Below are positions 17,804 through 53,221 of a stretch of 64,000 nt of DNA, one piece after another. The stretch is from contig CAYSFG010000033.1 of assembly GCA_964430545.1 (NCBI GenBank), forward strand, positions 6,394-70,393, given 5' to 3'. Position numbers and translations under genes: made by a program. Position 1 is the stretch's first letter. Each line of letters begins with the position of its first letter. The DNA is from Candidatus Woesearchaeota archaeon. GTDB taxonomy: Archaea > Nanobdellota > Nanobdellia > SCGC-AAA011-G17 > GW2011-AR18. Under the pieces are notes generated by a model, which was given only the letters and a program-made list of their open reading frames with translations, was not told where the DNA came from and searched no databases.

Positions 17804-17850
17804 TGAGGCTGCCCGGATTTGAACCGGGATCTCAAGGTCCCAAACCTCGG
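17804..17850 (-). tRNA. tRNA-Pro(UGG)-like 3' half (position 26 through 3' end) with no 5' half nearby; split-tRNA half or tRNA fragment
   Basis: Minus strand C CGAGG TTTGGGA CCTTG AGAT CCCGG TTCAAAT CCGGG CAGCCTC A is a perfect anticodon arm (anticodon TGG) plus T arm plus 3' acceptor strand. The complementary 5' acceptor GAGGCTG and a D arm are absent within about 400 nt on either side. Confidence 0.5.
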
Positions 17851-18197
17851 GTTCTAACCAAGTTATACTACAAATACAGTTCAAAGGCCAAAACCTATTG
17901 AATCCCCATTATATTAACTTGGGCCCAAATTATTGGATTATGAAGACTTAATAAAGTTTACTTTATGTAACTTATTTCATCAATAAACCTATTTACTCAA
18001 TTCATTTTAATTGTAAATCTAATATCTATTGTATGTTTGTTATCTTTATTTCTTCTTCTGAGGATTATTTAATTTAGTATTATAATTTTTTTTGATTTCA
18101 TTTTCTAATATTAATTATTAGGTTTATAAAATTCTATTGTGTAGTTGGTAAGATCATTTAATAATATAAGATATATTAATTTTAAAAAATGTTAAAT

Positions 18198-34498: not shown

Positions 34499-34714
34499 AT
34501 GACTAAAGGTACTGCATCAATGGGCCTTAAAGGCAAGAGAAGTGGTTTAGTGCAGAGATGTAGGCGTTGTGGAAAAAGAAGTTATCATGTTCGTAATAAA
34601 AAATGTGCATCATGTGGTTATGGTGATACGGCTAAATTAAGGCGTTATGCTTGGCAGACTAAAAGACATGGTAAAACAATCAGAAGAAAAAGAGATAATT
34701 CTTTGGCATATTAA
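34499..34714 (+). CDS. rpl37e: 50S ribosomal protein L37e
   Basis: MTKGTASMG...[22 protein letters not shown] zinc ribbon. Confidence 0.9.
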
Positions 34715-34807
34715 TTACTTATTGTATTTATAAATTTATTAAATTTTAAAAAATCCTTCCATTTTTTCTAATAAACCGTTATAAAGAATAAAAATAATAA
34801 ATCATCT

Positions 34808-35527
34808 ATGCAAATAAAAAATAATTTTATTCAGTTTAGATTAGTCAAGGAAGATAAAGAATATATTTATATTAAAGGAACTAGTGGTCCTGCTAAAGAA
34901 GTTAGAATATCCAAACATTTAACACCCGAACTTTATTTTTTAGCAGGAATAATTCTTGGCGATGGACATTTAGACAAAGATATAAAAAGAATTACATTAG
35001 AATTAACTGACAGAGAAAAATTAGAAAAGATTGCTACAATTTTTGAATTAGTATTTTCTTATACAAAAATAAAAATTGCAATTAGAACTGATAAAAGGGA
35101 AAATAGAAAAATAAGATTTTATTTTAATATAAATAATTCGCCAATATACCATTTATTCAACACTATCTTTGGAATACCTAAAGGAAAGAAAAGTGATATA
35201 ATAAAAGTGTCAAAATTTATTAAACAATCAAATTTAAAATTCAGAAAATATTTTCTTCTTGGAGTTTTTATAACAGACGGGGGGCGAAGACAAGGGGGTT
35301 TTGGTTTATCTACAGCTAGCAAAATATTTAGAGAAGATATATCTGAACTACTTTTTTCAATAGGAATTATACATTCAAAAGATAGTTGGATAAACAAAAA
35401 GTATAAAAAACCTTATTATGGTCTATCTTTTAGAAAAAAACAAATATACAATATGCAGGGGTACCAAAGTGGTCAAATGGGCCAGATTCTAGATTCTTTA
35501 TATGAGAAACTAGAAGGCTTAGCTTAG
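34808..35527 (+). CDS. LAGLIDADG-family homing endonuclease-like protein; its 3' end overlaps the 5' exon of the downstream tRNA
   Basis: Two LAGLIDADG motifs, FLAGIILGDGHL and LLGVFITDGGR. The ORF continues about 73 nt into the tRNA starting at 35455, so its true C-terminus is uncertain. Confidence 0.65.
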   Translation: MQIKNNFIQFRLVKEDKEYIYIKGTSGPAKEVRISKHLTPELYFLAGIILGDGHLDKDIKRITLELTDREKLEKIATIFELVFSYTKIKIAIRTDKRENRKIRFYFNINNSPIYHLFNTIFGIPKGKKSDIIKVSKFIKQSNLKFRKYFLLGVFITDGGRRQGGFGLSTASKIFREDISELLFSIGIIHSKDSWINKKYKKPYYGLSFRKKQIYNMQGYQSGQMGQILDSLYEKLEGLA

Positions 35528-35618
35528 GAAATCCTTAGGTGTTATGGGTGATTTTACACTACGATTTTATGACACCTGGTGGCTTAGGCCTTCGCAGGTT
35601 CGAATCCTGTCCCCTGCA
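35455..35618 (+). tRNA. Class II tRNA (Leu-like) carrying an intron of about 80 nt; anticodon unresolved
   Basis: Acceptor GCAGGGG/CCCCTGC (perfect), 3-bp D stem CCA/TGG with Leu-type D loop AAGTGGTCAAA, 3' anticodon strand CCTGG, 14-nt variable arm TGGCTTAGGCCTTC, T arm GCAGG-TTCGAAT-CCTGT, discriminator A. 164 nt against an expected 85. Confidence 0.65.
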
Positions 35619-35970
35619 TTATATTTCCTTAAGTTTAGTTAAAATAATAGCATATTCTGCAGGTTTGATATAATACCCTTCTTCAATTAATTTATTTAAT
35701 AATTCAACTGCTTTTTCTTTGTTGATTATATTTTTCTTCAAGGCAAGAAAAATAACTGTTGTTGTCCTAATTGTATTTATATTATAAGATTTGGCAGCTT
35801 TTATTGCATAAGCATCATCAATAATTAGAATTTCTTTTTTATCTTTTGAAAGAGATATAGCTTTCGTTTCTCATTTACCTAAATTGATATTAAGTTTATT
35901 CTTAATTTTTTCTACTTTAATCCATCCATCTTCTATTGCTTTTTTAATTATAATATGGAGGATTGTATAT
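35619..35970 (-). pseudogene. Degraded PIN-domain nucleic-acid-binding protein gene (COG2405-like): in-frame TGA and no start codon
   Basis: Minus-strand frame reads ...KKAIEDGWIKVEKIKNKLNINLGK*ETKAISLSKDKKEILIIDDAYAIKAAKSYNINTIRTTTVIFLALKKNII... The TGA at 35871-35873 falls at the conserved Gly of the LGKGE block. No ATG at the 5' end. Confidence 0.45.
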
Positions 35971-36063: not shown

Positions 36064-37488
36064 TCATACAAATATATTTTGATCATTACAATCCCAACCT
36101 AAATTTTTCATATCTTCAGAATTTTCACAAATTTGTTTTGATATTCTAGGATGATCTGGCAGTCCTATTTTACTCCAATCAAAATTTGGTGAAGGATCCC
36201 ATTTTCCACTACTAGAGATTTCATAATGCGCAATTACATTATAATCACTTATTTCTTCTAAACCATATTTACTTAATAGATAAGGCAATAAAATATTTAG
36301 AGTATCATATTGTTCTTTTGTATATTCATCATTAGACTTTGCAGTGTTTACAATTTCTATACCTATACTATCTGAATTTGCATTAGCAGCATGATAAGCT
36401 ATATATTCTTCAGGCACTAAATAATAAAGATCACCATTTTTATCTAATAAATAATGCGGAGCTAATTTTCTTTCTTTAAAAGTATTAATTGCTTGATCTA
36501 TTGTAGTTGTAGCTGTATGGTGCAATATTATTTTATTAATATTTCTATCATTATTTGGAATCCTATAACCAGCTATAATTTCTTCTAAATAATCTATATT
36601 AATATTTAATTCAATAGGAAATCCTTCTGGTATTGTTTCTATATTAATCTTTTTAACGACTTCTGATATTTTTTTAATTGCCTTTTGTTTAAATAATGTT
36701 CTTAATGTATCAATATCTACATTACCATAACCATCAATACCTTTTATTTTTATTTGTCCATTTTCTTGATAGAATTTTATTTTAATTTCTTTATGTATTG
36801 TTATATCATCAAGAGAATTAATAGAACCAAAAATTGTTGATAAACCTTCATCTAAATTTTTATTTTCTAAAGTATTTATAATTGCATTTATAATCCCACT
36901 TTTAGGTTGCTCTTCACCAGGTTTTTTTATTGGAATATAATCATCTGGGTTGCAATTATTATAAAAGAAAGTTGTTGGTTTGCAAAGTTGCCATTTATTA
37001 TTTTTAAACATTAACCATATATTAGAATTACTATCTATTCCTTTTCTGTCTAATTCTATAGGCCAACTTTCATAATTTTTAGGTTTATTTATACTAGTTT
37101 CAGGTGAGGCAGTATTTATTGAAGATCCATCTACTTCTTTTGGTATGAATTTTTTACTTTCTATTTTTCTATCTTTTAATTCACTTGGATTTTTTTTAAC
37201 ATAAATTTGTATACTTTCTACTTGTCTTCTTAATTCTGCTATATTTTTATATCCTAAAGCCCAATTATATAATGCTTGTGATGGTATTGCTGGATCAGCT
37301 GATTCTTTTACTAAATTTTCATATCCCTTTTCTTTTGGTATTGCCGGAACTCTTAAAATATTATAATCATTTATTAATTTACCAACAGAAATATCATTGT
37401 TTATTATTTGATTAAATTCTTGTGCATTTATTATATTTATAACTAATAACGTCATTACAATTATTATTAACACGATTTTTTTATTCAT
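36064..37488 (-). CDS. Secreted N-acetylmuramoyl-L-alanine amidase (Amidase_2/PGRP domain) with Sec signal peptide and a large N-terminal region
   Basis: Signal MNKKIVLIIIVMTLLVINIINAQE. C-terminal KIILHHTATTTIDQAINTFKERKLAPHYLLDKNGDLYYLVPEEYIAYHAANANSDSIGIEIVN matches the Amidase_2 zinc-amidase blocks. Confidence 0.8.
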   Translation of the reverse strand: MNKKIVLIIIVMTLLVINIINAQEFNQIINNDISVGKLINDYNILRVPAIPKEKGYENLVKESADPAIPSQALYNWALGYKNIAELRRQVESIQIYVKKNPSELKDRKIESKKFIPKEVDGSSINTASPETSINKPKNYESWPIELDRKGIDSNSNIWLMFKNNKWQLCKPTTFFYNNCNPDDYIPIKKPGEEQPKSGIINAIINTLENKNLDEGLSTIFGSINSLDDITIHKEIKIKFYQENGQIKIKGIDGYGNVDIDTLRTLFKQKAIKKISEVVKKINIETIPEGFPIELNINIDYLEEIIAGYRIPNNDRNINKIILHHTATTTIDQAINTFKERKLAPHYLLDKNGDLYYLVPEEYIAYHAANANSDSIGIEIVNTAKSNDEYTKEQYDTLNILLPYLLSKYGLEEISDYNVIAHYEISSSGKWDPSPNFDWSKIGLPDHPRISKQICENSEDMKNLGWDCNDQNIFV

Positions 37489-53136: not shown

Positions 53137-53221
53137 AGCCCCTGGTGGAAATTGAATCCACAACCTCTTCCTCATTAGCATAAGTTACCAAGGAAGGACT
53201 CCACCATTAAGCTACAGGGGC
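53137..53221 (-). tRNA. tRNA-Thr (anticodon GGU) with a 13-nt canonical anticodon-loop intron
   Basis: Minus strand GCCCCTG TA GCTT AATGGTG GAGT C CTTCC TTGGTA [ACTTATGCTAATG] A GGAAG AGGTT GTGGA TTCAATT TCCAC CAGGGGC T. Confidence 0.75.

Follow-up and report, generated by a model that had tools for sequence, protein, structure and literature searches.

How are a homing endonuclease gene and an intron-bearing tRNA gene related when the reading frame of the one runs into the other? The question arises at a locus in Candidatus Woesearchaeota archaeon (contig CAYSFG010000033.1), where a 239-codon open reading frame (ORF) for a two-motif LAGLIDADG protein overlaps a class II tRNA gene on the same strand by 73 nt (35455..35527). 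Coordinates are those of the window, meaning the whole 64,000-nt stretch of DNA analysed. Our preferred answer, which we rate as moderately probable, is that two separate things adjoin here, a twice-interrupted tRNA-Leu(UAG) gene and, on its upstream flank and possibly in its 5' leader, a free-standing homing endonuclease gene.

The tRNA gene is a tRNA-Leu(UAG) gene after predicted removal of two introns, which isolate the anticodon in a 7-nt micro-exon. Its parts are:

35455..35618, + strand, class II tRNA gene of 164 nt (Rfam RF00005, 37.2 bits against a gathering score of 29)
35455..35485, + strand, tRNA-Leu(UAG) exon 1, with the acceptor 5' strand, the D arm and anticodon-stem positions 27-30
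35486..35521, + strand, intron 1, 36 nt, at the non-canonical position 30/31, with a relaxed bulge-helix-bulge motif
35522..35528, + strand, micro-exon GCUUAGG, 7 nt, positions 31-37, with the anticodon UAG at 35525..35527
35529..35573, + strand, intron 2, 45 nt, at the canonical position 37/38
35574..35618, + strand, exon 3, positions 38-73, with the variable arm (14 nt), T arm, acceptor 3' strand and discriminator A

The initial annotation had described a co-oriented class II tRNA of 164 nt with a 73-nt overlap, discriminator A and a 14-nt variable arm; this is confirmed by the Rfam match, whose covariance score lies above the gathering score, and the variable arm, A73 and the D-loop GGUCAAA are tRNA-Leu features. 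The Rfam alignment has an 85-nt insertion in the anticodon region. A single intron of about 80 nt after CCAGA UUCUAG had been proposed there, but the ~81 extra bases are better explained as two bulge-helix-bulge introns of 36 and 45 nt on either side of the micro-exon. The CUA triplet that had been read in an anticodon loop UUCUAGA falls inside intron 1, and the mature loop is predicted to be CUUAGGA. Joining the exons in silico gives the stem CCAGG/CCUGG around this loop with the anticodon UAG, and the 83-nt spliced product is called tRNA-Leu(tag) by ARAGORN. Of the identities suggested earlier, Leu-UAG is thus retained, while the Ser-CGA/UGA and CUA readings are excluded.

Bulge-helix-bulge motifs consist of a 4-bp helix between 3-nt bulges, which in the canonical case pairs the first two anticodon bases (PMC4090602). 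A scan for this geometry over all position pairs gave too many chance matches to decide alone, and the junctions were therefore placed by the fold, the logic of the mature stem and comparison. The minimum-energy fold of the pre-tRNA (z = -4.85) contains a 3-nt bulge AGA between helices GGCC/GGCU and UUCUAG/CUAGAA. In intron 1 these form the central helix (4/4 paired) and the 6-bp inner helix; its bulges are AG|A and UA|G. Since only one G-C pair (1 bp) makes up the outer helix, the motif belongs to the relaxed HBh' type. Position 30/31 is listed among the known non-canonical archaeal tRNA intron sites (PMC4090602). In intron 2 the bulges GG|A and AC|A frame the central helix CUUA/UAUG (3/4 paired); the outer helix has 6 bp, the inner one 2 bp, and the junction is ambiguous by one A. 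Two other parses were rejected: the ARAGORN intron-mode call "Arg(tct), intron 83", which is mis-framed with a shifted acceptor, and a single canonical intron, for which the 3' flank does not pair with positions 32-35 and the stem would hold an A-C mismatch. With default settings ARAGORN finds no tRNA anywhere in the window, because all three of its tRNA genes are interrupted.

Comparison with relatives supports both introns. Homologues of the ORF were found at 29 loci in DPANN genomes (Woese-, Pace-, Nano-, Aenigmat- and Iainarchaeota), and intron states were tallied for 27 tRNAs including that of the window: seven have neither intron, seven have only the one at 30/31, four only the one at 37/38, and nine have both. 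The predicted mature tRNA-Leu sequences are all 82-84 nt long and align with their intron-free homologues (seven loci). Covariation was assessed in fixed blocks at the 30/31 splice sites of 28 genes, a set that includes tRNAs of endonuclease-free relatives. Pairing reaches 100% of cells in the central helix, where 3/4 pairs show double changes, and 93.8% in the inner helix, where all 4 pairs show them. The resulting score of 0.746 compares with 0.253 for shuffles (0/500 reach 0.746) and with ≤0.20 for slid controls. The site of intron 2 and its bulge pattern (GG|N ... A[AC]|A) are common to 12 other homologous loci.

Archaeal tRNAs with multiple or non-canonical bulge-helix-bulge introns are known from Thermoproteales, Nanoarchaeota and ARMAN (Marck & Grosjean 2003, Sugahara 2008, as reviewed in PMC4090602), and the tRNA-Leu(UAG) of the window belongs to this known class of multi-intron tRNAs. 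It shares with them the 3-nt bulges flanking a 4-bp helix, the combination of a canonical 37/38 intron with a non-canonical one at a listed site, and the relaxed HBh' motif, of which there are known examples. It differs from them in that its introns lie only 7 nt apart and leave the anticodon isolated in a micro-exon, and the DPANN tRNA-Leu(UAG) family differs in also having putative D-loop, T-loop and variable-arm introns.

Further inserts in the D-loop, T-loop/T-stem and variable arm of tRNA-Leu(UAG) were noted at loci L031, L032, L034, L035, L037, L044, L053, L066, L070, L080, L081, L101 and L003, and some relatives have three or more interruptions in this gene. At L064 and L065 the anticodon region holds both GCTAAGG and GCTTAGG, 9 nt apart, and a 30/31 parse pairs only 3/4 positions.

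The second component is the LAGLIDADG gene:

34808..35527, + strand, ORF of a free-standing LAGLIDADG endonuclease with two motifs, read as 239 aa, in which tRNA/intron sequence makes up the final 24 codons and the stop
34934..34972, + strand, LAGLIDADG motif 1 (YFLAGIILGDGHL; LAGIILGDGHL), with G51, D52 and G53 invariant in alignment A1
35249..35287, + strand, LAGLIDADG motif 2 (YFLLGVFITDGGR; LLGVFITDGG), with an acidic residue, D or E, in 21/22 aligned homologues

Judged from its sequence and modelled structure, the product is a monomeric two-motif LAGLIDADG homing endonuclease, of which the nuclease activity and the target are predictions. Pfam matches to LAGLIDADG_3 (3.7e-12) and Hom_end (1.8e-4), together with the presence of both motifs, bear out the earlier assignment. 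The AlphaFold2 model (pLDDT 88.7) has a pseudo-dimeric alpha-beta-beta-alpha-beta-beta-alpha fold, and the best solved structures in Foldseek are the TliVMA intein endonuclease domain, I-Tsp061I, PI-SceI and I-DmoI (E 5e-12 to 1e-7; probability 1.00 for the last three). The protein shares with these enzymes the monomeric two-motif fold and the acidic residue in each motif. Unlike them, it is encoded outside an rRNA intron or intein, is only 14-22% identical to them in sequence, and belongs to a subfamily with an extra N-terminal beta-strand region of ~35 residues. A full HMMER search returned 84 clusters at E≤1e-30, mostly of 200-245-aa proteins; the matches beyond these sit in 1500-2700-aa proteins, which are taken to be intein-bearing. 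In a search of IMG/VR for virus-borne copies, only relatives of 27-32% identity were found in viral contigs.

The gene is classed as free-standing because its ORF begins upstream of tRNA nucleotide 1 and the introns measure just 36 and 45 nt. That it sits beside the intron-containing gene rather than inside the intron had already been pointed out, and the arrangement recurs: tRNA-Leu(UAG) lies directly downstream of the endonuclease gene at 26/29 homologous loci. The endonuclease gene abutting tRNA-Leu was not found described in the literature searched.

No stop codon precedes the tRNA in the window, and the ORF terminates at the TAG at 35525..35527, which is the anticodon of the tRNA. The homologues (228-243 aa) have an apparent shared tail, R-E-C-R-S-G-Q-T-G-Q-I-L..., but on the DNA evidence this conserved C-terminus is the translated 5' half of the tRNA plus intron 1. 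Counting the window, 26 of 27 ORF-tRNA pairs lack an in-frame stop before tRNA nucleotide 1 and have the first one at pre-tRNA nucleotide 20-120; at nine loci the anticodon TAG itself is the stop, like in the window. All three reading phases between ORF and tRNA are used (3, 13 and 11 loci), so the tail is no conserved peptide. The linker from the last conserved protein motif to the tRNA, by contrast, is open at 27/28 loci in the frame of the ORF but at only 8/28 and 2/28 in the two other frames; real coding sequence therefore reaches the tRNA boundary and borrows its stop codon from the tRNA. A comparison of the C-terminus with homologues, as the initial annotation had advised, thus supports coding up to that boundary and gives no true stop of the protein's own, the tail being translated tRNA. 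Homologous ORFs ending upstream of 35455 would have spoken for an unconnected gene; 27 of the 28 stay open to the tRNA.

The same site can be followed in relatives that lack the endonuclease gene by means of its conserved left neighbour:

34499..34714, + strand, ribosomal protein L37e gene (Pfam PF01907, 2e-18), in relatives directly upstream of tRNA-Leu(UAG)

A metagenome search with the L37e of the window gave 80 loci. Only one of these L37e relatives, L031, has the endonuclease gene (60% identity to that of the window), and in about 20 endonuclease-free relatives L37e is followed by tRNA-Leu(UAG) within 38-165 nt with nothing between. The endonuclease gene is therefore a sporadic insertion of ~0.7 kb just upstream of the tRNA. 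Decayed copies also occur, L029 retaining only the last ~80 codons and L024 being frameshifted. Aligned with the endonuclease-free locus L033, the window is homologous from L37e through the TATA box of the L033 tRNA (34719..34749); the homology then breaks, 5 nt before the tRNA in the L033 spacer, and resumes at 35454, which is tRNA position -1. Homology with the closest relative, L030, stops at about 34723. Neither a displaced tRNA 5' fragment upstream of the ORF nor tRNA repeats flanking it were found in the window, and a search for endonuclease remnants in the spacers of empty loci matched only tRNA-encoded tails. Rarity, a fixed site across phyla, decayed copies and kept catalytic residues agree with a homing endonuclease gene that is gained and lost in a slow cycle; the sporadic occurrence among relatives, always at one and the same site, is in keeping with a selfish element that is site-specific.

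Several other irregularities were noted around this site. The stretch downstream of L37e is a variable spot, where some relatives have, in place of the tRNA, other genes or a small ORF (~80 aa) of alpha-helical appearance (L030 819..1425; spacers of L035 and L064/L065). At L063 (3162..3326) and L071 (3162..3344) the L37e-tRNA spacer contains two extra copies of the first 8 tRNA nucleotides (GCGGAGGT), the first of them at the normal TATA-box distance; the arrangement could be an interrupted 5' end or a footprint left by past insertions. Partial copies of the tRNA 3' end occur 60-120 nt downstream of tRNA-Leu at L020, L026, L047, L070, L071, L089 and L093/L095. Several of these are preceded by a hairpin GGTTGATAAGG...CCTTATG and look like attachment-site repeats or alternative 3' exons.

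Where the insertion lies relative to the promoter of the tRNA bears on how both genes would be expressed, and two elements upstream of the ORF are relevant:

34734..34749, + strand, probable relic of the ancestral tRNA-Leu TATA box (TTTATTAAATTTTAA), about 705 nt from the tRNA, as judged from an AT-rich alignment to L033
34779..34786, + strand, TATA-like box (TTATAAAG), 22-29 nt before the ORF ATG, a position that fits a leaderless or short-leader transcript

A TATA-like element is found at a similar distance before the start codon at most homologous loci. At empty loci a clear TATA box, TTTTTAAA, precedes the tRNA at about -34..-26, and a position-weight matrix built from these loci gives a median score of 8.7 for empty and 1.2 for occupied loci, against 2.5 for the window and -0.5 for ORF-body background. 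In the window lineage the element was apparently inserted between the ancestral TATA box of the tRNA and tRNA position +1, and the window tRNA probably depends on read-through transcription of the ORF and release by RNase P. As a general account, with the endonuclease gene housed in the 5' leader of a tRNA-Leu(UAG) unit, between TATA box and +1, and the tRNA released by RNase P from a joint transcript, the proposal is tentative and in our estimate somewhat doubtful. If it were true, homing endonuclease genes would have in such leaders, in addition to introns and inteins, a third "phenotypically silent" niche, and the mRNA would be non-stop after processing or else terminated inside the tRNA, here at the anticodon. 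It also raises the idea that a tRNA leader could render such an element harmless to its host.

Retained TATA boxes at some occupied loci are encoded by S-F-K-K/R codons of the ORF. The "IPLKN" codons were considered as the tRNA TATA box of the long-linker subfamily and dropped as a general explanation, since only some members have TATA-like DNA there. At L002, L006, L009, L012 and L016 the endonuclease ATG is preceded, at a distance of about 25-50 nt, by a conserved element (...GGNCAGRCAACGAAACATTTATTAA...), which is probably the promoter region travelling with that endonuclease subfamily.

In the course of events that we propose, an endonuclease gene with its own TATA box would have been inserted as a unit of that size into the short L37e/tRNA-Leu(UAG) spacer, where its reading frame would meet its first in-frame stop within the pre-tRNA (in the window, the anticodon TAG). 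The tRNA would be co-transcribed with the endonuclease mRNA and freed by RNase P, and a splicing endonuclease of relaxed specificity and an RNA ligase would remove both introns; given the relaxed motifs, the splicing enzyme would be expected to be of the epsilon2 or alpha-beta type. The enzyme would cleave the empty L37e/tRNA-Leu site, and the gene would be a site-specific selfish element, mostly inherited vertically and sometimes degraded.

Some observations weigh against this account. Within the ORF 3' end, about one third of the occupied loci still have a good and correctly spaced TATA box, and co-transcription is therefore not required everywhere. The central helix of intron 2 in the window is incompletely paired (3 of 4 positions), the insertion boundary was drawn from an alignment of AT-rich sequence, and three homologues (L004, L005 and L010) have a stop codon of their own and no downstream tRNA. 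Among 12 syntenic loci the identity of the endonuclease tracks that of host markers (Spearman 0.48 with LSm plus L37e, p=5e-5; endonuclease/S8e identities 81/77, 79/84, 63/65 and 60/50%), and no pair was seen there in which the endonuclease was far more similar than the host genes; the tRNA itself is too short to serve as host proxy in such distance comparisons for horizontal transfer. No recent horizontal transfer is thus visible, and long vertical persistence could also mean a host function.

How do the alternatives fare on these data? A tie between endonuclease and intron was implicit in the initial annotation. One reading of this kind is collaborative homing, with the enzyme cutting intron-less tRNA-Leu(UAG) at 30/31 or 37/38, the introns protecting the carrier, and both spreading together. 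F-CphI and the psbA intron of cyanophages are a precedent. The pair L031, with endonuclease and 30/31 intron, and L032, with neither, share their other introns, and L022 and L027, with both, have almost the same mature tRNA as L092, with neither; local co-transfer accordingly keeps some plausibility, though not as the rule, since overall there is no association. The 30/31 intron is present at 17/28 occupied and 12/29 empty loci (Fisher p=0.19), and completely intron-free tRNAs at 7/28 and 9/29, respectively. At L023 the endonuclease gene stands beside an uninterrupted arm CUAGG-CUUAGGA-CCUAG identical to arms interrupted elsewhere, and endonuclease-free relatives carry the same introns, that of L033 being almost identical to intron 1 of the window. 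Endonuclease and introns turn out, in this comparison of loci, to be independent of each other, and we regard collaborative homing as improbable.

A host function is a serious rival, albeit one that we find unlikely. The gene would be a domesticated, immobile LAGLIDADG gene, encoding for example a factor that binds DNA or RNA and acts at the tRNA-Leu locus or on its precursor in the manner of WhiA or the LAGLIDADG maturases, kept beside the tRNA by co-expression. Intact homologous ORFs do persist at 30-60% identity over several DPANN phyla with a divergence that roughly tracks host markers, coding constraint extends to the tRNA boundary, and some family members have weak Pfam WhiA_N matches. 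Set against this, all but one of the 80 close L37e relatives do without the gene, and the tRNA stays put in its absence; the truncated and frameshifted copies of L029 and L024, the retention of catalytic acidic residues that a pure binding protein would not need, and the finding that, outside the family, intein endonuclease domains come closest also speak against domestication. Least probable is chance adjacency with a gene-calling artefact, in which an ordinary gene beside a tRNA is simply read on to the next stop. The read-through tail, being no conserved peptide in any of its three phases and owing its apparent conservation in alignment A1 to tRNA sequence, speaks for it; the recurrence of the arrangement in several phyla and the frame-specific openness of the linker contradict it. 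A free-standing, probably selfish endonuclease gene beside an independently interrupted tRNA is thus the reading we retain.

Free-standing homing endonuclease genes are familiar from phages, where T4 SegB lies in a tRNA gene cluster and F-CphI beside psbA. The gene of the window resembles these in being intergenic, at a fixed position and sporadic, with a conserved neighbour as potential target. Its host, in contrast, is a cellular DPANN archaeon, its enzyme is of the LAGLIDADG and not the GIY-YIG or HNH type, its ORF lacks a stop of its own and ends inside a tRNA, and its inheritance looks mostly vertical. It is thus a variant of the free-standing homing endonuclease gene, one that occurs in a cellular archaeon, is bound to the 5' flank of a single tRNA gene and has no stop codon of its own. 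With tRNA-targeting integrative elements it has in common the tRNA gene as conserved landmark, and some relatives have partial tRNA 3'-end repeats; it differs from such elements in lacking an integrase and a flanking tRNA repeat and in lying at the 5' flank.

The locus provides a cellular archaeal example of a free-standing LAGLIDADG gene bound to one intergenic site, and occupied, empty and decayed versions of the L37e/tRNA-Leu site are all at hand for comparison. It also illustrates that an endonuclease gene may lie next to a tRNA rich in introns and yet have nothing to do with them. There are consequences for annotation. Standard tRNA finders miss or mis-call the tRNA-Leu gene, and with all three tRNAs of the window interrupted, DPANN annotations will therefore omit these tRNAs; they will also give the endonuclease a spurious "conserved" C-terminus, in fact a translation of the tRNA.

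The window has a G+C content of 25.6%. Around the endonuclease gene, Pfam identifies ribosomal protein S8e on the - strand, followed by an LSm protein and L37e on the + strand, which marks the context as archaeal; L37e is separated from the 239-aa ORF by 93 nt, and the window shares with nine genome loci the syntenic order S8e, LSm, L37e, endonuclease, tRNA-Leu. Elsewhere in the window, three further features were noted:

36064..37488, - strand, gene for a protein of 474 aa, hydrophobic at its N-terminus and with an N-acetylmuramoyl-L-alanine amidase domain (PF01510, 1.9e-26) at its C-terminus
17804..17907, - strand, tRNA-Pro(UGG) gene with a 30-nt intron in the acceptor stem
53137..53221, - strand, tRNA-Thr(GGU) gene with a canonical intron of 13 nt

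The amidase-domain protein is a peptidoglycan hydrolase, and the host archaeon itself is without peptidoglycan. In tRNA-Pro(UGG) the intron (17903..17874) follows the exon GGGG (17907..17904), between nucleotides 4 and 5, and has a bulge-helix-bulge motif with the central helix AUGG/CUGU and the inner helix UUCAA/UUGAA. The Rfam match to this gene (17877..17804) has three acceptor mismatches, and after splicing in silico ARAGORN reports tRNA-Pro(tgg) with a full 7-bp acceptor.

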